From positions 30,058 to 94,057 of the forward strand of contig JAKSTZ010000004.1 of assembly GCA_024402335.1 (NCBI GenBank): a stretch of 64,000 nucleotides of DNA. Direction: 5' to 3'. Below, one piece after another: positions 6,860-59,493 of the stretch (positions within the stretch are counted from its first letter, which is position 1; every line of letters starts with the position of its first letter). The notes under the pieces are model-generated. The model had not been told where the DNA came from. It did not search any database and saw nothing but the letters and a program-made list of their open reading frames with translations. Origin of the DNA: Bacteroidales bacterium (GTDB lineage Bacteria > Bacteroidota > Bacteroidia > Bacteroidales > UBA1715). The position numbers were made by a program, and so were the translations under genes.

Positions 6860-7880
6860 CGTAGTCGTCATAGTCATCGTCATCAGAATCTTTTGATTTC
6901 TTTTCCTTTTTAGGTTTTGCTGTTTTTTCCTTCTTTGTTTTTTCAGACTTAGCCTTCACTTCTTCGTCATCATAATCATCGTCGTAGGATTCTTCAGATT
7001 TCTTTACAGATTCTTTCTTCTTTTTATCTTTAGAATCTTCTTTCATAACAGGTTTCGCAACCTCGTCATGATCAGCACTTTCCGAATCCGCTTCATATTC
7101 ATCGGCAAAATCATCTACATTCTCTTTATGTTTTTTCTTTTCCTTTTCGGCAAGAGCAGCGGCTGCGGCAGCCTTTTCTGCTTCAATATCCTCGGGATCT
7201 TTATTGTAATCGGCATATTTGCCTTCAGTATCCTTTAATAAATAATTTTCCAATTTCAAATATTCACTCGGATCGTAAGGTTTTGCTGTAGGTGGAGCTT
7301 TTATCTCTTCCTGTACTTTGAATGTTCGTTTTCGTATTAAAGTACTTGGAATCATTCGTTTAGCTCGAGTTTTTGTTTCATAAACCGACCAAGCCTTCAT
7401 ATCTGCCCACACAGCATTACACCAATCTTCCACTTCCATGCACTTTCCAGAAGGAACCTTATCATAATCCATAATACGACCAAACGAATTGGTACCATAT
7501 TCCGAAAATCGTGCTTCATGTAGAAAATTTGTAAATTTTGTCACGATTATAGAATCCTGAATGCTAACTTCAATGCTAAAAACAATACTTCCCTTTGTTT
7601 TTTCAGCTGCATGTGAAGACAAATATATATCAGGAATCTGCACATGATTGGAATACGGAAAATAACCTTTTCCTTTGAATATCATCTCCTTACGATTTTT
7701 CGCAACCAATCGTTGACCTTTTTCATCCTTAAACCAATGGTCGATATTTCGCATCAAACGAATTCGACTTGTTCCATGACGAATAGGAATCGTATCATAC
7801 ACCATAAAAGCCTGGGAGAAAGCACTATACGAAAGGCTACAAAGCCACAACAATATGCATATAACCAAACTCTTTCGCAT
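6852..7880 (-). CDS. Secreted hypothetical protein with a ~140-aa Lys/Asp/Glu-rich disordered C-terminal tail (N-terminal domain possibly DUF4468-like)
   Basis: Signal peptide MRKSLVICILLWLCSLSYSAFSQ. The tail contains KKKESVKKSEESYDDDYDDEE...DDDDYDDYDD. The start was moved to the ATG at 7880. Confidence 0.7.
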   Translation of the reverse strand: MRKSLVICILLWLCSLSYSAFSQAFMVYDTIPIRHGTSRIRLMRNIDHWFKDEKGQRLVAKNRKEMIFKGKGYFPYSNHVQIPDIYLSSHAAEKTKGSIVFSIEVSIQDSIIVTKFTNFLHEARFSEYGTNSFGRIMDYDKVPSGKCMEVEDWCNAVWADMKAWSVYETKTRAKRMIPSTLIRKRTFKVQEEIKAPPTAKPYDPSEYLKLENYLLKDTEGKYADYNKDPEDIEAEKAAAAAALAEKEKKKHKENVDDFADEYEADSESADHDEVAKPVMKEDSKDKKKKESVKKSEESYDDDYDDEEVKAKSEKTKKEKTAKPKKEKKSKDSDDDDYDDYDD

Positions 7881-7909
7881 AGCTTTTATTTTACAAAACG
7901 AATGCAATA

Positions 7910-8605
7910 CTATTTTATTGAACAATCAACAAGTTTATATGTTGTAATTGTTCCTTTTGTGATTCTTTCCTCTATCGGATCATTCAAATCTATAGGAGCA
8001 TGATTCGGTTGAGACTCTACATCTATATTTTTACGATAAACCAAACCAATATTTTTTGCATATCGTTCCTCTGCATGCTGGTAAGAATACAACGACTTAA
8101 AATCTTGCTGCAAAACAAAAAGAACAGAATCTGTTTCCGTTATTGCATCGTATTCATTTATACCAACATAATATATTTCTTGTTTTAATAAAGAATTATA
8201 AGCATTCAAATCCCAAGTAAAAGTTGTTTTTGGAGGAAATTTTAGCACAAGATATGGAACATTATCTTCTACCCGGACTATTTGATGATCATATTGTTGG
8301 ACACTTCCTGAAGTATAAGGACGCCACACACCATCGTTTGCATCTTTTTTTTCAGTTTGAATCGCATACACTTTACAAGAATTTGTATCTGCAATACATT
8401 CCATAACTGTTTCACGAAGTTGAAAATATGCAGTATCCTGTATGCCTGTAGGTATATCTATTCGTATAGAAACACAATCGTATGTACGTGTACTACCAAT
8501 AGTTAACGGATAATAGTCCGTCCATTGCACAAATGGCTGTACATCAGTCTTCTTACAAGACAAAACAAGACAAAACAGCAAACAATATACAAGAATTCGT
8601 TTCAT
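7910..8605 (-). CDS. Hypothetical lipoprotein
   Basis: Lipobox-like N-terminus MKRILVYCLLFCLVLSC. No recognisable catalytic motif. Confidence 0.7.
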   Translation of the reverse strand: MKRILVYCLLFCLVLSCKKTDVQPFVQWTDYYPLTIGSTRTYDCVSIRIDIPTGIQDTAYFQLRETVMECIADTNSCKVYAIQTEKKDANDGVWRPYTSGSVQQYDHQIVRVEDNVPYLVLKFPPKTTFTWDLNAYNSLLKQEIYYVGINEYDAITETDSVLFVLQQDFKSLYSYQHAEERYAKNIGLVYRKNIDVESQPNHAPIDLNDPIEERITKGTITTYKLVDCSIK

Positions 8606-8651
8606 AATCTTTAGAAGAAATCAAATGTACAAAATTCCCCAAAAATGACAT

Positions 8652-9896
8652 TTATTTCTTTGTCATAAACGACAAATCATCCCAGAAACCTGGATATGAT
8701 TTTGCAACACATTCTGGATTCTCAACCTCTACCGGTTCTGTTGCCAACAACGCAGCAACAGCACCTGCCATAGCAATTCTATGATCATTATTAGCGTGCA
8801 TCATTCCTCCACGTAGTGTACCGCCATACACAAACATTTCGTCGTCTGTACATTCTATACGAGTACCCAATTTCGCAAATTCTTTTTGAAGAACCAATGC
8901 ACGGTTACTTTCCTTATGGGCAAGACGGGAAACACCCTTTATTTTAGTAACACCGTTACAATGGGCTGCAAGAGACACTAATGGTGGGAATAAATCCGGA
9001 CACTCTGTAGCATCAAATTCAAATGCATTTAATGCATTTGAACTAACAGATATCTCATTGTCACCCAAAACAATATTAGCACCTACTTTTTGTAATGCTT
9101 CAACTATAGCTTTATCAGCTTGACAGGAAGACATTGAAATATTTTTTACCGTAACATTTCCTCGTAAAGCTCCTGCTACAAGCAAAAAAGAAGCACCACT
9201 CCAATCACCTTCCACCACAAAATCCTGAGCTTTATACGTCTGTCCGGCAGGAATTCGGAAAGTCACATATTCCTCTCGTTCCACTTTTACTCCAAACTTA
9301 CGCATCATATCTACAGTGATATCGATATATGGTTTGCTTTTTAAGTCTTTTACCTGAAGAACGACATCTTTTTTTGCATACGGAGCAGCTATCAACAAAC
9401 CGGTTAGAATTTGCGAGCTCAAAGAACCATCTACTTCGGCATTTCCACCAACCATAGGTCCACAAACTTGTACTGGAACAAAACCGTTATTCGTTTCTAT
9501 TTTCACACCCAACTGACGTAATGGAGCTTCTAAAACAGAAACAGGACGAGTTTTCAAAGAACCTTCACCTTGCAATGTTATAGGTTCTTTCCACAAAGAA
9601 GCGACCGGCGTGAACATACGAATTCCTAACCCTGCCTCGCCACAATTCAATTCGTTTGTTTTTGGATTTAGACCACCATCTATTGTTACATCTTCACCTA
9701 AAACAGTTACTGTAGAGCCAAGATTATCAGCGATTTTCAACGCTGCATCACTATCATTACTTGAAGAATAGCCATGCAAATGTGAAACACCTTGAGCCAA
9801 TGCAGCAATCGCAATTGCACGCTGCATAACACTCTTTGACGCAGGAGGAATTATTGTCCCCTGTACTTCGGTTGGATATATTATTTTGTTCCCCAT
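8652..9896 (-). CDS. aroA: 3-phosphoshikimate 1-carboxyvinyltransferase (EPSP synthase)
   Basis: 414 aa with typical EPSPS sequence (PPASKSVMQRAIAIAAL, LKTRP, HNDHRIAMA). The start overlaps the stop of the upstream gene by 16 nt. Confidence 0.95.
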   Translation of the reverse strand: MGNKIIYPTEVQGTIIPPASKSVMQRAIAIAALAQGVSHLHGYSSSNDSDAALKIADNLGSTVTVLGEDVTIDGGLNPKTNELNCGEAGLGIRMFTPVASLWKEPITLQGEGSLKTRPVSVLEAPLRQLGVKIETNNGFVPVQVCGPMVGGNAEVDGSLSSQILTGLLIAAPYAKKDVVLQVKDLKSKPYIDITVDMMRKFGVKVEREEYVTFRIPAGQTYKAQDFVVEGDWSGASFLLVAGALRGNVTVKNISMSSCQADKAIVEALQKVGANIVLGDNEISVSSNALNAFEFDATECPDLFPPLVSLAAHCNGVTKIKGVSRLAHKESNRALVLQKEFAKLGTRIECTDDEMFVYGGTLRGGMMHANNDHRIAMAGAVAALLATEPVEVENPECVAKSYPGFWDDLSFMTKK

Positions 9897-29090: not shown

Positions 29091-30124
29091 AACTTTATCT
29101 TTAAATTCACCACATACATTTCACCGGCATCATCAATGTCGAGGTTGCATTTAGATCCATAAACCAAATACAATCTGTTCTTAACATTTTGAATACCTAT
29201 ACCACAAACTTTATCTTTTTGATTTCCAGTATATTTCTTGTTTTCTATATGGAATTCTATAAGTTTACTTGTTACAGTTATATGACAATCAATATTTACA
29301 ATACCCTCTGTGTCAGCCCCATGTTTAAATGCATTTTCCAAGAATGGGACCAAAATCATAGGAGCAATTTCTGCTTGTTCATTTTGATTATCAACAACAA
29401 AATTCACCTTACTTTCCGACGAAAATCGAAGTTCTTGCAACTTGATAAAATCCTGCATATAATTGATTTCCTTTTGTATGTTAACCATATTTTCATTCGA
29501 ATCGTATGTTACATACCGAAGTAAATCCGACATGGTTAAAATTATTTCCGGAAGTTTATCTGATTTTTTCAACGACAATGAATACAAGCTATTTATTGCA
29601 TTAAACAAGAAATGCGGACTTAATTGCGATTTTAGCAATTGCATATTCGAAGTAATCTGCTGTCTTTCCAATTCCCGCAACAATTTTTCTCTCTTCTCGT
29701 GACGAATATTTGCCCCATACACCAAACTCGCGGCAAGAGTAACCATAAACGACATATATAGATGAGGCGGTATAAAATCATTTCGAACAACCGTTGGTCG
29801 TGGACGCGGAGAGTCTAACGTAAGTTCTCTTAAAAGATTCAGGAAATCAGTACGAACCGGTTTCATACATTTGAACAAACAAATATATAACAGCGCAAGC
29901 AGCACAAGCGAGATGAAGTACAAAAGATATTTTTTCTTATAAAACAAATGTGGCATAATCAACAATGCATGAGAATAAAACACGACAAATGTTCCTGTCA
30001 GTGCAACAAACTCATATCCTATCAACTTGATAGAAAATGGAACAGAAAAGAAAATATGCGGAATCATTAACAAAATCATCCAACCGCATACATGTTTTAA
30101 GATTCTTTCCGCACCTGCTTGCAT
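29087..30124 (-). CDS. Sensor histidine kinase (LytS/YehU-type, His_kinase PF06580-like)
   Basis: Multi-TM N-terminus, then LKSQLSPHFLFNAINSL (H-box) and an ATPase-like C-terminus. It overlaps the RR gene by 4 nt. Confidence 0.85.
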   Translation of the reverse strand: MQAGAERILKHVCGWMILLMIPHIFFSVPFSIKLIGYEFVALTGTFVVFYSHALLIMPHLFYKKKYLLYFISLVLLALLYICLFKCMKPVRTDFLNLLRELTLDSPRPRPTVVRNDFIPPHLYMSFMVTLAASLVYGANIRHEKREKLLRELERQQITSNMQLLKSQLSPHFLFNAINSLYSLSLKKSDKLPEIILTMSDLLRYVTYDSNENMVNIQKEINYMQDFIKLQELRFSSESKVNFVVDNQNEQAEIAPMILVPFLENAFKHGADTEGIVNIDCHITVTSKLIEFHIENKKYTGNQKDKVCGIGIQNVKNRLYLVYGSKCNLDIDDAGEMYVVNLKIKL

Positions 30125-52391: not shown

Positions 52392-53723
52392 TTATAAATC
52401 CTTACGAAATTTCTTGTCTAAAACACGAATTTTAGACAAACATTCTTCTTTAGTAAGGTTTTTATAGCATAATCGAGAGCCGTTTTTTTCTCCTTGGTCT
52501 AAACCATATTTATTTATGAAATCAGACAAATTAAAACCATCGGTATTACTATATCTGGATGATGTTTGAATTTCATAGCTATTTTTATTGAGTATAACAT
52601 CTATAAAAGGACGATCTTCAATTACAGTAGAATTATTTTTCCCATCATAATCAATAGCAAGACATCTTTCAAAATATGGCCAAGAATGAACAGGTAATTG
52701 TCTAATTTCAGAATGGATCTCATCTAGTAACTGTATTAAACTATCCATATAAGTTGCTATTGCTGTCAACATTGACAAAACATAATTGGAGAAATCTTTA
52801 TTTTCTCCATTTTGTAAATCCTCCATCAAGTTTGGTCGTTTGATGAAGTTATCTTTTTTAGGAAAATAAATCCACCAACAATTTTCTTGACTATACTTTC
52901 CACCAAATTTCCATTTAAGATGTTGATATACATCGTGTTGTAAGCCGTTGTGATCTTTAATATCAGCCCAAAAATACCATCCCTCTTCATAATCAACTCC
53001 AAAATGGGCAAATTCCTTTTTGTAACGTATAGGGGAGTTTTTACCAAGATCCTCTTCAACAGATTTCCAACCTAACTTTTCAATATTATAAACAAAGCTA
53101 TTCCAATCTGATGTCTTTATTTCAGCAATTTCTTTTGCTTTTGTCGCTTCAAGATTTTCACAGAAATTCTTTATAGCTTGTTTTATATTTTCATCGTCAT
53201 TGTATGGTAAATCTATATTTTTTTCTTCTTTCGAATATAGTTCCTCTTTCATACACTGAACTATACCGAATAAATTCTCTAAAATAGTTTCTGATTTTGA
53301 TTTGTTATTTTCCTGTTTAACATCGTCCGCAGCCATAATGTTTTTCACGCATTCGCTAATTTGCTTAATATGTTCACTTGAGGTGTGAATCATAGCTAAA
53401 TGCGAAATACTAAATTGAAGATGGATAGCCTCCTCTGTTGTTATTTCTCCATCTTCAAGAGAATCGCATAGTTTCTCTAAGAATGATTTATATACAGAAA
53501 GCTTCTCTTCAAAAACTTTAGTATTCCTTTCTTTCACCTCTTCGGTTGCAGTTTGCCCTTGAAGGAGTAACATAGTAATAATTGCAGCGATAATTGCACC
53601 AGCTATTGCCGCAAACAACTGCGATGCGATTTCTAAACCCATCCACGCTCCGCAAAGCCAAGCCAATAGGATGAAGAAAATCATTAAGACTGTTCCTAGT
53701 GTGTAAATTTTTTTGTTTTCCAT
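52392..53723 (-). CDS. Uncharacterised membrane protein (2 N-terminal TM helices plus a ~370-aa soluble region), translationally coupled to the DUF262/DUF1524 gene
   Basis: The start at MENKK (ATG 53721-53723) overlaps the upstream TAA as TAATG. The TM helices are IYTLGTVLMIFFILLAWLCGAWMGL and LFAAIAGAIIAAIITMLLL. I recognise no motif in the remainder. Confidence 0.7.
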   Translation of the reverse strand: MENKKIYTLGTVLMIFFILLAWLCGAWMGLEIASQLFAAIAGAIIAAIITMLLLQGQTATEEVKERNTKVFEEKLSVYKSFLEKLCDSLEDGEITTEEAIHLQFSISHLAMIHTSSEHIKQISECVKNIMAADDVKQENNKSKSETILENLFGIVQCMKEELYSKEEKNIDLPYNDDENIKQAIKNFCENLEATKAKEIAEIKTSDWNSFVYNIEKLGWKSVEEDLGKNSPIRYKKEFAHFGVDYEEGWYFWADIKDHNGLQHDVYQHLKWKFGGKYSQENCWWIYFPKKDNFIKRPNLMEDLQNGENKDFSNYVLSMLTAIATYMDSLIQLLDEIHSEIRQLPVHSWPYFERCLAIDYDGKNNSTVIEDRPFIDVILNKNSYEIQTSSRYSNTDGFNLSDFINKYGLDQGEKNGSRLCYKNLTKEECLSKIRVLDKKFRKDL

Positions 53724-55456
53724 TATATCAAATTTAAATTCCAAATTTCTAATACAGCTTCTTTAATTTTATTATGACGTCGTTCAATAGCATCTTTGTT
53801 CCAGACCGGATTATTCTTGTCGCTAACAAATTCAATGATTTCTTTCTGTTGGTTTAAAAGATTGTCTTTCCCATAGGACGCCAATTTGTTGGCAAAAGGT
53901 TTGTTGCCAATAGAACTGTTGTGTGGTTGTGAAATCAACATTAAATTGCCAACACAATTCAACCAATGACCTGACTCAATTCCATTTTCAGGAATTTCTT
54001 TATCTGTATATATACCATATCCATTTGCAAGTGGGTCGCCATTGGTTGGTGTTTGTGGGGCAATATGTTCGATACTTTCGTTGCGAATTAAATCACTGAA
54101 CTTAACTTTGTGTGGCATAGGATGGTTCTCGTTGCACAAATACAACTCATATTTCCATAGAAGATAATTATCAACACGATTTTTGTAGAACCTATCCGAA
54201 TCAACCCAACGTATCATTTCGTTGTCGCTCCAATAGCCCCACCGCCAATCATTTTTGATTCTATCTATCATCCAATTGATACTGTCGTTTAAAGATTTGT
54301 CATCTTTAATGTTCAAATTGTTGAGAACACAATTGAAACGACGTTCAACATCGGCACGTCCAACACGCAGCAAACTACGGAAGGTAATGTTTTCAAGGAA
54401 ACGAGCCATGCGGTTGAACGTATTTTCACTTGCCTTGCATCTATCGGCTTTGATGAAGAACGGATATGCCAAAGCCATATTATTGAGATAGAAAAGGTCG
54501 GTGATGTAACTATATTTGCTTTGTTTTACCTTGTAAACAGTTTCAAATGCCTGCGAGATACCCGCAACGAAATCTTTAATCCAATCAATCTTCTCCAATT
54601 GGTTTGCGATAGCAGTCTTTACGCCATCAACCACATCATCGCTATAAAAGCCTTTTCCACTGACAGCACGCCAATAATGGTTCAGCACCTCGTCTTCTTT
54701 TTCATCAACCATCACAATGCGTTGATAAATTGTTTCAAACTCACTTTCAAGGTACTTAATATTTTCGTTGATAAGGTCATCGTTTCCGGAAAGGAGATAA
54801 ACCTGAAGCATAAAGTACGACTTGATTTTGTCTAATTTTGATAATGCCTTGCCACGGTCGTTTTGGAAGGCGAAAATCTGTGCGGCCTCTGCTTTGTCGG
54901 ACACTACGAATTGCGTGATGGTGGCATTTTGAACTAAATTATACCATTGCTCAAGCGTTTCTGTCGGGATTTTTGCAAATTCCTCATCAAACAAGGTTTT
55001 TGCCTCGCGAATGTGCTTTTGTGAAAGCGTTGAGGGCTCTTGAGCGTTCTTCTTTTGATTGATTACTTCGTCCACAAAAAAGTTGTTATCGTACTCAACG
55101 GTTCTGAATTTTTGCGTCTGCTTGCGTATGTCGCGTATGTAATAATCCTTGATGTCGTCTAAATCAACAACGATAACTTCTCCTTGTTGTTTTCTATTGC
55201 TCAATTCATTGTACATCGAACTGAAAAAGATGACGCAAGTGGTAAGTCGTTGCTGACCATCAATTATTTGCAAGGTATTTTCGTTGGGCTGTTCAAACAA
55301 GAAATGCCCCAAGTAGTATTTGTTTGATGCATTTTTCAAATCTTCAATGAATTGCATAATTTGTTTTTCACCCCAACTATACGAACGTTGATAAGCAGGT
55401 ATTTCAAACTTCCGATTTTTTGCATCGAAAAGTTTTTGAATAGTAAGTGTTTCCAT
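53723..55456 (-). CDS. DUF262 (ParB-like NTPase) + DUF1524 (His-Me finger) protein, GmrSD-like putative type IV restriction / defence nuclease
   Basis: N-terminus has IPAYQRSYSW, IDGQQRLTT and FAFQNDRGKAL. C-terminus has ESIEHIAPQ and GNLMLISQPHNSSIGNKPF. Confidence 0.85.
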   Translation of the reverse strand: METLTIQKLFDAKNRKFEIPAYQRSYSWGEKQIMQFIEDLKNASNKYYLGHFLFEQPNENTLQIIDGQQRLTTCVIFFSSMYNELSNRKQQGEVIVVDLDDIKDYYIRDIRKQTQKFRTVEYDNNFFVDEVINQKKNAQEPSTLSQKHIREAKTLFDEEFAKIPTETLEQWYNLVQNATITQFVVSDKAEAAQIFAFQNDRGKALSKLDKIKSYFMLQVYLLSGNDDLINENIKYLESEFETIYQRIVMVDEKEDEVLNHYWRAVSGKGFYSDDVVDGVKTAIANQLEKIDWIKDFVAGISQAFETVYKVKQSKYSYITDLFYLNNMALAYPFFIKADRCKASENTFNRMARFLENITFRSLLRVGRADVERRFNCVLNNLNIKDDKSLNDSINWMIDRIKNDWRWGYWSDNEMIRWVDSDRFYKNRVDNYLLWKYELYLCNENHPMPHKVKFSDLIRNESIEHIAPQTPTNGDPLANGYGIYTDKEIPENGIESGHWLNCVGNLMLISQPHNSSIGNKPFANKLASYGKDNLLNQQKEIIEFVSDKNNPVWNKDAIERRHNKIKEAVLEIWNLNLI

Positions 55457-55544
55457 GATTTATTGTCTTAAATTTACTGTACTATTAAAAAAATAAGTAG
55501 AAGCCATTTACCGAAAAACGACTTATACTTTTAATTGAGACACC

Positions 55545-55853
55545 TTATCTATTAGGTCGTTCATTTGTTTTTTTGAACATTACATCATAGGTTGCTATCC
55601 ATGAACCTTTTACAAATGTCATTGTTTGCCCTGCGGCGTTCTTAAACATACCTACAGAAGAAGCTGGAACTTCTTTGATTTTTTTGAAGTTCATATCGTA
55701 TGTTGCTACCCACGAGCCTTTTTGACACACAACAAAAGTTCCTGTGAATCCTAATAATTCTCCTATGGAAGAAACAGGAACTTCCTTGATTTTTTTACCT
55801 TGTTCATTGATTGTAGCAATCCATGAACCTTTGATTTCTACATCTGCTATCAT
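55545..55853 (-). CDS. Small (102 aa) protein built from 2.5 tandem ~38-aa repeats (KGSW[IV]AT...KKIKEVP.SS.G)
   Basis: The internal repeat is visible directly in the translation. The ATG at 55853 is preferred over the TTG at 55883. A -7 box lies at 55913-55920. Confidence 0.55.
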   Translation of the reverse strand: MIADVEIKGSWIATINEQGKKIKEVPVSSIGELLGFTGTFVVCQKGSWVATYDMNFKKIKEVPASSVGMFKNAAGQTMTFVKGSWIATYDVMFKKTNERPNR

Positions 55854-55912
55854 TTCTTTATCCCTTATCCGTGACGGGCGCAACTTTTATTAAATGTTAA
55901 ATTTATTTTCAG

Positions 55913-55920
55913 CAAACATA
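55913..55920 (-). promoter_or_regulatory. -7 box (TATGTTTG) for the small repeat-protein gene (possibly also the DUF262 operon)
   Basis: The plus strand reads CAAACATA, 60 nt upstream of the ATG at 55853. Confidence 0.4.
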
Positions 55921-55980
55921 TTTTTCTACTGTGCAAAAATCTAGAACACAACAAAAAATTTTTGTTTTCAAATTTTTTCC

Positions 55981-55996
55981 GTAACATATATGTTAC
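55981..55996. promoter_or_regulatory. Perfect palindromic operator GTAACATATATGTTAC (GTAACA-N4-TGTTAC), site 1 in the divergent promoter region
   Basis: A 16-bp perfect inverted repeat between the divergent genes at 55853(-) and 56053(+). Confidence 0.7.
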
Positions 55997-56027
55997 GCAT
56001 TAGGCAAATATAAAAAGAAATCTTTGC

Positions 56028-56043
56028 GTAGCAAATATGTTAC
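56028..56043. promoter_or_regulatory. Operator site 2, GTAGCAAATATGTTAC (one mismatch to GTAACA-N4-TGTTAC)
   Basis: Lies 10-25 nt upstream of the XRE ATG, over the likely transcription start, 47 bp centre-to-centre from site 1. Confidence 0.6.
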
Positions 56044-56052
56044 GCAAAATAA

Positions 56053-56262
56053 ATGGAGTATCAGGAAGAGATTCAGTTAATTGCCTCCAAAATAAGAGCT
56101 TATCGAATAGAAAAGAATCTTTCGGTACAAGACTTGGCGTATCTCTGCGATATGGAGCGTTCAAGTATGAGCAGAATTGAATCTGGCCGAGTGAACATTA
56201 CAATAAAAACTCTTTTTACAATTAGTAAAGCACTTGGTGTTGATATGAAAGACTTAATATAG
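56053..56262 (+). CDS. XRE-family helix-turn-helix transcriptional regulator (69 aa)
   Basis: HTH_3-like sequence IRAYRIEKNLSVQDLAYLCDMERSSMSRIESGRVNITIKTLFTISKALGV. Two palindromic operators lie immediately upstream. Confidence 0.85.
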   Translation: MEYQEEIQLIASKIRAYRIEKNLSVQDLAYLCDMERSSMSRIESGRVNITIKTLFTISKALGVDMKDLI

Positions 56263-56263
56263 T

Positions 56264-57397
56264 CTATTCTTTAAAGAATGAATTCAAATTCTTTTGAACC
56301 CAACGACCAAAAATGGGATCAGACAACTCAACTTTTTTGCCCGTTACTTCTACAATTTCTTTTGATTCTAATGCTTGTATTACGCGAGCCACGTTAGCCG
56401 TTGAACCCAAATTATACTGCTTTATAACTCCCCCAGTATATAAATCCATCGTATGTCCATCTGCAATTGCACGAACCACATTAACTTGATATGCAGATAG
56501 TTCATTCACATATTTTAAAAACAATACATGATTTTGACGCAATAGATCTTGTTGTGCAAGAATTAAATCTTCTTTCGTTGCCACATTTTCCGTCCGTGCC
56601 CATAACAACCAAGCCAAATGCTGAACATACGAAGAATTACCTTCTACAAATAAACAGATATTCTCACATAAATCCTTCGAAATGTCTTTTTGCGTTTTTC
56701 TAAATTGTTGTTGAATATATTCAACCCAATAGTTTGTAGGAATTTTTTCTAAAAACATTACATCTCCAAATTTGTAAAATGGATGAGAAACCTTCCCAAA
56801 CATATTCATTAAAACATGTCGCTTGCTACCAAATAAACAGTACGAAGTATTCTTTTGTAATTGCCATACCGAACGAAGTTTTTTCTGAAAAGACAAAGAA
56901 TCTATAAATTCTCCAATTTGTTGAAATTCATCAATACACACAACAATCCGTACACCACGCTCAATTGCTATGACCTCTGGCAAATTCAATACCTCTGAAT
57001 CATACTTGTTATTTGTAGTTTCCAACGAAAAGGATATTTCACTATCCTGACCGATACTTATTTTAGGAACTAAATTTGAAAGAAATTTCTTCGTATTAGC
57101 AATTAAGGATTCGGTTTTCGTGCTTATTTGTTTTATTATCTCTGTCGCAAAAAGTCTGTAAAAATCCTCCTCATTTCTGCACGCAAAGGCATCCATTTGA
57201 ACAACCAAAATTTCTTTTCTTTCTTTTAGTTGTGAGGCAACTTTATTTACCAAAGACGTTTTGCCTAATCTTCGAGGTGAGATTAATATAGTGTTTATCT
57301 TGTTTGTTAGATTTAATGTTAGTCGATCGGTTTCTTCCAATCGGTCGGTAAAGTGTTCAACGTCAGTGGCTATTCCATATACAAAAGGATTATTCAT
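56264..57397 (-). CDS. AAA+ ATP-binding protein (archaeal-type ATPase PF01637-like with a DUF234-like C-terminal winged helix)
   Basis: NPFVYGIATDVEHFTDRLEE, Walker A SPRRLGKTSLV, and Walker B VVCIDEFQQI. Confidence 0.8.
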   Translation of the reverse strand: MNNPFVYGIATDVEHFTDRLEETDRLTLNLTNKINTILISPRRLGKTSLVNKVASQLKERKEILVVQMDAFACRNEEDFYRLFATEIIKQISTKTESLIANTKKFLSNLVPKISIGQDSEISFSLETTNNKYDSEVLNLPEVIAIERGVRIVVCIDEFQQIGEFIDSLSFQKKLRSVWQLQKNTSYCLFGSKRHVLMNMFGKVSHPFYKFGDVMFLEKIPTNYWVEYIQQQFRKTQKDISKDLCENICLFVEGNSSYVQHLAWLLWARTENVATKEDLILAQQDLLRQNHVLFLKYVNELSAYQVNVVRAIADGHTMDLYTGGVIKQYNLGSTANVARVIQALESKEIVEVTGKKVELSDPIFGRWVQKNLNSFFKE

Positions 57398-57413
57398 AGT
57401 AATTCATTTTTTG

Positions 57414-57421
57414 CAAAAATA
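57414..57421 (-). promoter_or_regulatory. -7 box (TATTTTTG) for the AAA ATPase gene
   Basis: The plus strand reads CAAAAATA, 17 nt upstream of the ATG at 57397. Confidence 0.45.
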
Positions 57422-57433
57422 ATATTTTTCTGA

Positions 57434-57483
57434 TTAGTAACAAAGTTGTTACTAACAAACTTGTTACTAACAACTTTGTTAGT
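57434..57483. promoter_or_regulatory. Array of three 15-bp-phased GTAACA-N4-TGTTAC-type palindromes upstream of the AAA ATPase gene
   Basis: GTAACAAAGTTGTTAC (57437-57452, perfect half-sites), CTAACAAACTTGTTAC (57452-57467) and CTAACAACTTTGTTAG (57467-57482). The array lies just upstream of the -7 box at 57414-57421. Confidence 0.65.
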
Positions 57484-57740
57484 TAATTAATAAATTATAT
57501 TTCAACAAGTTACTTAAAAACATAAAAGTAATATTGCAAGGCAAAACTTGCAAATAATGATATAAAAATTTCCACCAAACCGAAAGGTAAATTTCTCTAT
57601 CTAATAAATTGTCTAAACTTTTTATTATGTTAATCGCATTATGCGATTTGTATAATGTAAAACAAATAATTATATATTCTTTATTCAAAAAAATTTCTTC
57701 AGATTGTTTTTACTTGAATAGATAAAACAACGAAACCAAG

Positions 57741-57781
57741 AAAAAAAATAAAACCCGATGCTGTTTTTCAACATCGGGTTT
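57741..57781 (-). terminator. Terminator after glnS (right island boundary)
   Basis: AAACCCGATG...CATCGGGTTT stem followed on the minus strand by a T-rich run. Confidence 0.7.
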
Positions 57782-57807
57782 TGTTTACTGATATGTAAGC
57801 TAAAGCC

Positions 57808-59493
57808 TTATCCGTTTATTTTTGCCCAGCTGTCTTTCAATGTACAAGCACGATTGAATACCAAATGGTCTGGAGTAGAATCTTTATCTACGCAGAAGTA
57901 GCCAAGACGTTCAAACTGCATTTTGTCTAAAACTTTGCTGTTCGCCAAATATGGTTCCAATTTACAATTTTGAAGAACTTGCAATGAATTTGGATTCAAG
58001 TTATCCAAGAATGTTTTGCCTTCTTCTACATCTTCTGGAGCTTCCACTGCAAACAATCTGTCGAATAAACGAACCTCAGCATCGATTGCTTTTTCAACTG
58101 AAACCCAATGGATAGTACCTTTCACTTTGCGTCCGTCTGGAGAATTTCCACCCTTAGATGCAGGATCGTATGTACAACGAATTTCTGTTATGTTGCCGTT
58201 TACATCTTTTATAACTTCTTGACAAGTAATAAAATATGCGTAACGAAGACGAACTTCTTGTCCTGGTGCAAGACGGAAATATTTCTTTGGAGGATTTTCC
58301 ATAAAGTCGTCTTGTTCAATATAGATTTCTCTTCCAAATGGAATTTCGCGTGTTCCAGCAGATTCATCTTCTGGGTTGTTCACTGCTGGCAAATATTCGA
58401 TTTGTCCTTCTGGATAGTTTGTAATCACTACTTTTACAGGATGAAGCACTGCCATCATACGAGGAGCAACTTTGTTCAAATGCTCACGAAGGCAGAATTC
58501 CAATACTGAATAATCAATAATATTATCGCGTTTTGCAACGCCTATCTTTTCACAGAAATTTCGGATAGATTCCGGTGTATAACCACGACGACGGAAACCG
58601 CATATCGTCGGCATACGAGGATCGTCCCAACCGCTTACATAGTTTTCTTTTACCAATTGTAAAAGTTTACGTTTGCTCATCACTGTATAGTTAATGTTCA
58701 AACGAGCAAATTCATATTGGTGCGAAGGGAAAATTCCTAATTGTTGAATAAACCAATCATACAATGGACGGTGAATATCGAATTCCAAAGTACAAATTGA
58801 GTGAGTGATATTTTCTATTGAATCGCTTTCGCCATGTGCAAAGTCATACATCGGATAAATGTTCCATTTATCGCCGGTTCTATGATGATGAGCATGCAAA
58901 ATACGATACATAATAGGATCGCGGAACTGCATGTTTTGGTGAGCCATGTCTATTTTTGCACGAAGAACTTTTGAGCCATCAGGGAACTCTCCATTTTTCA
59001 TTCTTTCGAACAAGTCAAGATTTTCTTCCACACTTCGATCTCTCCAAGGACTTGGTGTTCCAGGAGTTTGTACAGTACCACGATTCTTACGGATTTCCTC
59101 CAATGTTTGATCATCGACATACGCCAAGCCTTTCTTAATCAAAACACAAGCCCAATCATATAATTGAGCGAAATAATCAGATGCATAATGAACACTTGCC
59201 CACTCAAATCCTAACCAACGTACATCTTCCATAATAGAATCTACATATTCTGTATCTTCTTTTACTGGATTTGTATCGTCGAAACGAAGGTTGGTCTTTC
59301 CTCCATATTTTTTTGCTAAACCAAAGTTCAAGCAAATAGATTTTGCGTGTCCTATATGTAAATAACCGTTTGGTTCAGGTGGGAAACGAGTCAAAATTGC
59401 TTTGTGTTTTCCACTTGCTAAATCATTTTCAATGATTTCTTCCAAAAAGTTTAAGCTTTTCTTTTCTTCTTGCAAATTTTCTTCCATAATCAT
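57808..59493 (-). CDS. glnS: Glutamine--tRNA ligase
   Basis: 561 aa with the HIGH motif ([18 protein letters not shown]) and KMSKS motif (VMSKRKL). Confidence 0.95.

Follow-up and report, generated by a model that had tools for sequence, protein, structure and literature searches.

Operator-like palindromes of two probably independent kinds beside an XRE regulator and a winged-helix AAA+ ATPase in a variable islet of Bacteroidales

Small single-domain HTH_3 proteins of the Cro/CI type (XRE, PF01381), including the control (C) proteins of restriction-modification (R-M) systems, are known as autoregulators with dyad-symmetric operators over their own promoters. DnaA boxes in the dnaA promoter lead to autorepression, and in ParR/parC of plasmid R1 and in Rep-iteron systems, tandem repeats overlap the promoter of the gene for their binder and bring about autoregulation. 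Here, a locus of a Bacteroidales bacterium is compared with these systems, in which a small XRE regulator gene and a gene for an AAA+ ATPase lie side by side and palindromic sites accompany both promoters. The window, by which we mean the whole stretch analysed, is 64,000 nucleotides long (positions 30,058 to 94,057 of contig JAKSTZ010000004.1, assembly GCA_024402335.1), and the coordinates below are counted from its first letter. An earlier note on this DNA held that a single operator architecture, GTAACA-N4-TGTTAC, joins five island genes into one regulon under the XRE protein. Our analysis favors, with moderate confidence, a variable islet between an oxidoreductase gene and glnS in which two autoregulatory modules are neighbors but work independently of each other. 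The sites, their conservation and their separate co-inheritance with either gene are observed, as are the modelled fold and the covariation of protein residues with DNA bases; binding of the proteins to these sites, the direction of regulation and any part played by ATP are what we infer.

The XRE/HTH_3 regulator of 69 residues is encoded at 56053-56262 on the plus strand (Pfam HTH_3), and the ATPase of 377 residues, an AAA+ protein with a predicted C-terminal winged helix (AlphaFold2), placed with the PF01637 type by its modelled fold (Foldseek) and its annotated relatives, at 56264-57397 on the minus strand. The two genes are convergent, with stop codons 1 nt apart, and the array lies upstream of the ATPase -7 box, so the gene layout described in the earlier note was confirmed. 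The five palindromes it had reported are all present, each exactly in its place: a perfect one, GTAACATATATGTTAC (55981-55996), and a second, GTAGCAAATATGTTAC (56028-56043), on the XRE side, and the three units GTAACAAAGTTGTTAC (57437-57452), CTAACAAACTTGTTAC (57452-57467) and CTAACAACTTTGTTAG (57467-57482), spaced at exactly 15 bp in front of the -7 box of the ATPase. GTAACA-N4-TGTTAC is matched perfectly by the first array unit. With one mismatch at most, this motif has 4 matches in the 64 kb, where 0.23 are expected, and none of 100 shuffles reached 4. The core TAACA-N4-TGTTA has 4 exact matches in the window against 0.19 expected. With two mismatches allowed, GTAACA-N4-TGTTAC is not enriched in the window (7 matches, 3.8 expected). 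In Tandem Repeats Finder, 57434-57481 comes out as an array with period 15 and 3.2 copies, and since the three units form one tandem repeat, only three independent events are to be counted, namely the two XRE sites and one array. An Rfam search of 55400-57900 (E <= 1) returned sub-threshold chance matches only and does not indicate an RNA element.

The array (57437-57482; sequence and Tandem Repeats Finder) consists of three 15-bp units, each of which is a 14-bp palindrome, TAACAA-NN-TTGTTA, plus one separator base. The -7 box of the ATPase promoter, TATTTTTG, is at 57414-57421 on the minus strand (read 57421->57414). The TTTG of the -33 element (57444->57441) falls inside the promoter-proximal unit 57437-57452, 19 nt from the -7 box, and a putative degenerate fourth unit, TAATCAGAAAAATAT on the minus strand (57422-57436), is suggested by the register and fills the gap between array and -7 box. 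The same arrangement is a feature of the ATPase family. One genome per species was surveyed, giving 80 Bacteroidales loci with homologues at 49-99% identity, from taxa including Bacteroides, Prevotella, Alistipes, Parabacteroides, Paludibacteraceae and Salinivirgaceae; at least 64 of these loci have 1 kb or more of sequence on both sides. The unit pattern was counted as 5+4+5 bases, and the 160 bp upstream of each start were also inspected. Almost everywhere, the homologues are preceded by 2-4 head-to-tail 15-bp units of the form TAAYAA-NN-TTRTTA plus a separator base. The density of the unit pattern is 11.2 per kb within 250 bp upstream of the 80 genes, compared with 0.18 per kb over 815 kb of flanking sequence. 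Two or more units at exactly 15 bp are found in 61 loci (93 spacings equal 15), and homologous arrays overall in 61-71 of the 80. Outside ATPase promoters, phased chains were seen in the surveyed loci only immediately 3' of the same ATPase genes. The -7 box of the homologues lies 2, 17 or 31-32 nt after the last recognizable unit. These offsets are steps of 15, which indicates that the array, with degenerate proximal units, runs in register to the -7 box. In TAATAA-type arrays (L029, L051, L052, L057, L062 and others of the Ile338 class described below), the sole conserved G-containing half-site, TAATAAAGTTGTTA, belongs to the middle unit and falls at the position expected for the -33 TTTG; one half-site of these arrays seems to double as operator and promoter element.

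The ATPase of the window scores 28.9 bits against the PF01637 model, below the cut-off of 33.2, and most of the listed homologues at 53-99% identity carry a precomputed PF01637 assignment, including the 99%-identical cluster P0039. The Walker A motif GKTS (residues 45-48) and the Walker B motif CIDEF (154-158) do not vary among the 34 sequences aligned. This is a very large family, since 7993 of the 8000 candidates scored were sequence clusters at E <= 1e-10, which is a lower bound. In an AlphaFold2 model based on the 34-sequence alignment, the AAA+ core is joined by a helical lid and, at the C-terminus, by a winged helix (helices 302-312, 322-327 and 333-345, wing 349-358), with a predicted local distance difference test score (pLDDT) of about 90 for residues 220-370. 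Foldseek places 2qen of Pyrococcus abyssi first (4.2e-12) and 2fna, SSO1545 of Sulfolobus solfataricus, second (7.4e-10), and also matches Orc1/Cdc6 and ORC subunits, including the DNA complexes 2qby and 2v1u (matches 2qby_A, 1w5t, 1fnn and 2v1u; 1e-7 to 1e-8). A sequence search of the PDB with the ATPase found only 2qen (E 0.03), and it took the comparison of folds to place the protein. These archaeal Walker ATPases of PF01637 have the same order of AAA+ core, lid and winged helix, although their sequence identity to the window ATPase is only 16-19%. A PADLOC match of the ATPase to PDC-S01 (E ~4e-4) covers only the N-terminal region around the P-loop and was not used.

Half-sites of the arrays vary by clade, with both halves changing jointly (TAACAA/TTGTTA, TAATAA/TTATTA and AAACAA/TTGTTT). 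In an unbiased ranking of the 377 alignment columns over 62 dereplicated loci, column 338 came out on top for the fraction of C at half-site position 4 (adjusted R2 0.89), and column 337 for the fraction of A at position 1 (adjusted R2 0.81). A filter for specificity-determining positions kept 4 of the 377 columns (295, 332, 338 and 339). The third helix of a winged helix is the canonical recognition helix, and the adjacent residues 337 and 338 both lie in the one predicted here; the chance that both top columns fall within one 13-residue helix is about 0.001. Sequences with Arg338 (n=14, mean C-fraction 0.97) go with TAACAA and those with Ile338 (n=32, mean 0.16) with TAATAA; the mean C-fraction is 0.40 where residue 338 is Thr (n=7) and 0 where it is Ser (n=3). 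Chemically, a match of Arg to a G:C base pair and of Ile or Val to T:A is sensible. Thr338 has at least three origins, and mixed C/T half-sites go with every one of them. Within the Thr338 clade, two Ile338 variants carry arrays counting 5 T and 1 C, in weak agreement with the trend. At the same promoter position, other palindromes are found in distant paralogues (23-27% identity), for example TTGCATTATG...CATAATGCAA in L082 and ATAATCAT-TTT-ATGATTAT in a Bacteroides plasmid. Upstream of a Lys338 variant (L103, 1-290), the repeats are of another and more complex kind, with three copies of TTGGTGTTAG spaced by 10 bp and, in addition, CTAAC-N6-GTTAG; in this locus (1466-1953), the ATPase is followed by an unrelated convergent HTH gene for 53 residues and a gene for 109 residues.

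From the fold and the covariation, we propose that the winged helix of the ATPase would read the TAACAA/TTGTTA half-sites of its own head-to-tail 15-bp array. Because the -33 element lies within the array and the -7 box directly adjoins it, occupancy of the array should repress transcription of the ATPase gene, in that the bound array, possibly in a cooperative and nucleotide-dependent state, would compete with RNA polymerase. AAA+ proteins oligomerize with nucleotide, which makes a cooperative, nucleotide-dependent assembly on the 2-4 units likely in our inference. In function, such an array would come closest to iteron or parC arrays and to the DnaA boxes of the dnaA promoter. As with DnaA, the repeated recognition elements adjoin the AAA+ protein's own gene, and as in Orc1/Cdc6, which also has repeats by its own gene, an AAA+ module is joined to a DNA-binding domain that reads sequence. 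Unlike the elements that flank a DNA-unwinding region at Orc1/Cdc6 and DnaA origins, the units here are short 15-bp palindromes registered to a promoter. The GC-skew profile has no sign change at this place, and a role as replication origin does not fit a family of at least about 8000 clusters at ordinary chromosomal loci in hundreds of species. With ParR/parC and Rep-iteron systems, the ATPase genes have in common an array at the own promoter and, in some loci, repeats at both ends of the gene. They differ in fold, which is AAA+ and neither the ribbon-helix-helix of ParR nor the WH1-WH2 of Rep; in location, the loci being chromosomal with only distant paralogues of the ATPase on plasmids; in the repeats, which are 15-bp palindromic units and not direct iterons of 11 bp or 17-22 bp; and in gene content, no partner ATPase or partition genes being present here.

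The XRE module is of a better-known kind. Its protein passes the HTH_3 (PF01381) cut-off of 23 with 44.5 bits (E 1.5e-11) and in PADLOC fits the R-M 'Control_protein' model best (6.8e-13); 38 homologues were found at 63-97% identity. The distal operator, CCGTAACATATATGTTACGC (55979-55998, core 55981-55996), has conserved counterparts in other lineages, which lie about 74 bp before the ATG of XRE. A -7-like box of the Bacteroidetes type, AATCTTTG (56019-56026, plus strand), was predicted between the two operators by comparison with the Bacteroidetes -7 consensus, TAnnTTTG, and Salinivirgaceae loci have an equivalent box, AATATTTG, at the same place. Because this box sits between the two sites, the proximal operator, GCGTAGCAAATATGTTACGC (56026-56045, core 56028-56043; sequence and conservation), covers the predicted XRE transcription start, just as the earlier note had suggested for the second palindrome. 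Among homologues at 72-97% identity, the distal site lies at about -74 and the proximal one at about -27 from the ATG, 47 bp apart, with the consensus nnGTARCAWATATGYTACGC, of which the right half, ATATGYTACGC, is nearly invariant. The XRE homologues of 9 lineages have this two-site layout in front of them, and the two sites stand 47 bp apart in the window, in L001 and in L083-L094. For the most distant homologue checked (P0038, 63% identity; L095 and L096), no such operator sites were found.

The conservation of the layout in 9 lineages supports the autoregulation that had been proposed, and XRE is likely to repress its own gene. Presumably as a dimer, it would bind the two 18-20-bp operators, whose centers are 47 bp apart and bracket its promoter, and with the proximal operator over the predicted start and the distal one at the ~-33 region, it would repress its own synthesis. 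With its small single HTH_3 domain, dyad-symmetric operators over the own promoter, a defense gene set on its divergent side and 'Control_protein' as best PADLOC match, the XRE module resembles an ordinary autoregulator of the Cro/CI type. It differs from the C proteins of R-M systems in that its palindromes are 31 bp apart with a -7-like box between them, whereas the C-box is compact and paired, and in that the XRE gene is divergent from the nuclease gene and not co-transcribed or co-oriented with it. The nuclease is here a type IV GmrSD without methyltransferase, and the cargo varies between close relatives.

Control of the divergent side by XRE, which was also part of the earlier proposal, is plausible. 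The minus-strand genes form a candidate operon (52392-55883, from open reading frames, ORFs), preceded by a predicted -7 box, TATGTTTG (55913-55920, read 55920->55913 on the minus strand), which is 60 bp from the distal operator. The three transcription starts predicted in the region are at about 56031, 57408 and 55906. XRE would probably also set the output of the divergent promoter for the genes of the repeat protein, GmrSD and the membrane protein. The stretch of the divergent -7 box is kept in L081 before a different cargo. As indirect support for control by XRE, the divergent arrangement persists among relatives, and parts of the cargo, which varies between close relatives, recur. For instance, the membrane protein shares 46% identity over residues 8-178 with a 368-residue protein in the XRE-divergent operon of L083 (4469-5575), and a 45-residue peptide (MY.LNFPNGNVQTY...) at XRE-divergent positions is 78% identical between L082 (5708-5845) and L083 (5627-5764). 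The recurring part of the membrane protein is its N-terminal transmembrane and helical region, and the cargo beside XRE appears modular.

The two classes of sites were separated by position matrices, which were built from other genomes, with the window left out, and used to score every position of the window. The XRE matrix gives 33.2 bits to the proximal and 30.8 bits to the distal XRE site, the first and second ranks in the 64 kb, and -7.6, -15.8 and -18.9 bits to the array units (ranks 20, 165 and 346 in the window). With the array matrix, the units take ranks 1-3 (29.4, 29.3 and 27.2 bits) and the XRE sites have -1.4 and -1.1 bits. The flanks that are invariant within each class differ, being ATATGTTACGC in the XRE sites and nTTGTTA[CG]TA in the array, and only the core TAACA-N4-TGTTA is common to both. 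The two classes are also inherited separately. Within 2.5 kb of the 80 surveyed ATPase genes, an XRE gene was detected only in L001, from the same species and with 97% XRE identity (tblastn, and a hidden Markov model of the XRE family run on ORF segments); TAACAA arrays without XRE are found in L003, L004, L047 and L019-L023, of which L023 represents the copy of B. thetaiotaomicron, and GTAACA operators without an adjacent ATPase in Salinivirgaceae. Since the half-sites occur separately in lineages without XRE or without the ATPase, their similarity predates the juxtaposition of the two genes, and adjacency did not create it. In L081, an XRE gene 91% identical to that of the window occupies the same slot between the oxidoreductase gene and glnS without the ATPase; alignment with the window shows a 1.5-kb segment of ATPase plus array as an insertion/deletion difference, and the divergent cargo of L081 is a different one (a 333-residue protein, a UDG-like protein and HicAB). 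L082 has XRE (90% identical), the ATPase and a second, divergent PF01637 paralogue. No ATPase is present in L083-L085 (XRE 75% identical) or L086-L094 (72-75%). A metagenome scan for the XRE-type operator GTAACANNNNTGTTACGC gave at least 120 loci from unrelated environments, and none of those listed encodes an XRE homologue or an island protein, so that the scan adds no information here.

These results bear directly on the idea of one regulon, in which XRE would bind its own operators and the triple array and so control the ATPase gene and all five island genes. The adjacency of the two genes speaks for it, as do the perfect GTAACA-N4-TGTTAC of the first array unit and the core with its 4-bp spacer, which is identical at both places with at most 0.2 expected per 64 kb. 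Nevertheless, arrays with the same half-sites accompany the ATPase in lineages without XRE, XRE operators are kept in lineages without the ATPase, L081 carries XRE but no ATPase, and in L082 the ATPase and its array are intact although the XRE promoter region has collapsed to a single operator. The array units, at -8 to -19 bits under the XRE matrix, also lack every flank position that is invariant in XRE sites. The single operator architecture of the earlier note is therefore not borne out, as the array is a family-wide feature of the ATPase, the matrices tell the classes apart and the half-site bases covary with residues of the ATPase itself; nor is the five-gene regulon, as array and XRE operators are each co-inherited with their own gene. 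We regard one regulon as quite improbable, and the same low probability goes to control of the ATPase gene by XRE. Incidental binding of XRE to the common core TAACA-N4-TGTTA may occur.

The reader of the array could also be another host factor, or the array could have a structural role in the promoter, with the ATPase unbound and the covariation a phylogenetic artefact. The array does overlap the -33 region, the G-containing half-site TTGTTA of the Ile338 class at the expected -33 TTTG shows that part of the conservation is promoter sequence, and the Arg338 sequences stand together in a neighbor-joining tree ordering, apparently as one clade. Against this, the units are dyad-symmetric and their half-sites co-change by clade, as expected from a dimeric reader whose specificity evolves locus by locus and not from a single global factor; the top columns for two DNA positions are adjacent residues of the recognition helix; Thr338 came with mixed half-sites at each of its origins; and distant paralogues have different palindromes at the same promoter position. 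A reader other than the ATPase is thus considered unlikely. About as unlikely, and able to coexist with two regulatory modules, is that the arrays serve mainly as recombination or cassette-boundary sites that mobilize or duplicate the ATPase gene, with regulation being secondary. Direct repeats stand on both sides of the ATPase gene in about 10 of 64 loci. In L003, L006-L009 and L018, a copy of the array, in some cases together with 40-60 bp of the sequence upstream of it, follows right after the stop codon, whereas L037, L052 and L068 have 100-460 bp of locus-specific sequence on either side of array and ATPase, and the ATPase with its array is an insertion/deletion difference between near-identical loci, as noted above for L081. 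However, no recombinase is linked to the ATPase genes, flanking repeats are lacking at most loci, plasmid and phage collections contain practically no members of the family but only paralogues at 23-37% identity, and the fixed register of array and -7 box is a property of a promoter. A still bolder combination has only a slight probability in our view: PF01637-type ATPases of Bacteroidales would be nucleotide-controlled DNA switches on iteron-like arrays at their own promoters, with specificity from two recognition-helix residues and with arrays that are also cassette boundaries for gene movement and duplication, and the common core would here allow cross-talk between ATPase and XRE operators, coupling the GmrSD islet to the state of the ATPase.

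Two independent autoregulatory modules remain our preferred explanation, and several observations weigh against it. The identical core in both site classes is an unlikely coincidence that two modules leave unexplained. Deletions between the XRE operators, 31 bp in L081 (5950-6000) and 47 bp in L082 (5970-6000), have removed the intervening -7 box, so that the two-site layout is not universal, and loss of the box means that XRE expression in these loci is driven differently or lost. For the divergent promoter, a distance of 60 bp between distal operator and -7 box is too far for simple occlusion. On the side of the ATPase, the structural model has moderate confidence overall (pLDDT 76, predicted template-modelling score 0.56), and the Foldseek template-modelling scores are low (0.3-0.4), which is explained by differing domain orientations. 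As Arg338/TAACAA apparently represents one clade, its share in the covariation may go back to just one event in evolution. As a separate observation on the two deletions, they fuse or merge both XRE operators.

The direct repeats around the ATPase gene look like a signature of cassette insertion or duplication. Loci bracketed in this way are L003, L006-L009, L018, L037, L047, L052, L068, L073 and L076, the locus-specific flanking repeats are 93-97% identical, and the second array of L018 immediately precedes the start of ruvB. An origin of the ATPase from plasmids or phages was considered and rejected on the basis of the distant paralogues in those collections. Another trace of gene turnover is seen in the window itself, where 57600-57690, a stretch that contains a palindrome, aligns with TTGCATTATG-N7-CATAATGCAA and the promoter (L082 7540-7613) of the L082 gene at 7611-8738. 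The window thus keeps the upstream region of the second PF01637 paralogue without its gene, which indicates a deletion in the lineage of the window.

The remaining islet genes are all on the minus strand. The first encodes a repeat protein of 112 residues (55545-55883, an ORF with ATG at 55853 as likely start), made of about 2.5 internal repeats of about 37 residues (KGSW[IV]AT...KKIKEVP.SS.G), for which no family was found in Pfam, NCBIfam or PADLOC. It is followed by the GmrSD-type type IV restriction enzyme (53723-55456; GmrSD_N and GmrSD_C in Pfam, HEC-06/Orf5 models in PADLOC) and by the membrane protein of 450 residues (52392-53744, from its ORF), and these two ORFs overlap by 22 nt (53723-53744). 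NCBIfam has no family for the ATPase, GmrSD or the membrane protein either, and no methyltransferase was found among the island ORFs. Compared with L001, a contig of the same species, GmrSD (window 53723-55456, L001 7941-9671) is only 80% identical, and the proteins flanking it are 92-100% identical (membrane protein 100%, ATPase 99.5%, XRE 97%). This difference points to allele exchange or diversifying selection at the restriction gene.

One regulon would have tied a defense islet to an ATPase of unknown function, and the evidence argues against this link. It also follows that a short palindromic core common to neighboring genes is weak evidence of co-regulation unless the extended consensus and co-inheritance are checked. 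The pairing of ATPase and array is the more interesting result than the XRE module. Our literature searches found no description of the function of this ATPase family or of its arrays, nor of a function or DNA target for the 2qen/2fna family, whereas a cognate DNA array can be assigned here; as far as these searches show, the pairing is an undescribed variant of autoregulation by a DNA-binding ATPase. It offers a first way into a very large, functionally uncharacterized family of gut and rumen Bacteroidales, in which nearly every ATPase gene surveyed comes with a putative cognate operator array whose sequence is predictable from two residues of the winged helix. With this predictability, the family can be approached by experiment, with assays of array binding, with specificity swaps and with promoter reporters, and it would offer a ready set of orthogonal protein-operator pairs for Bacteroides.

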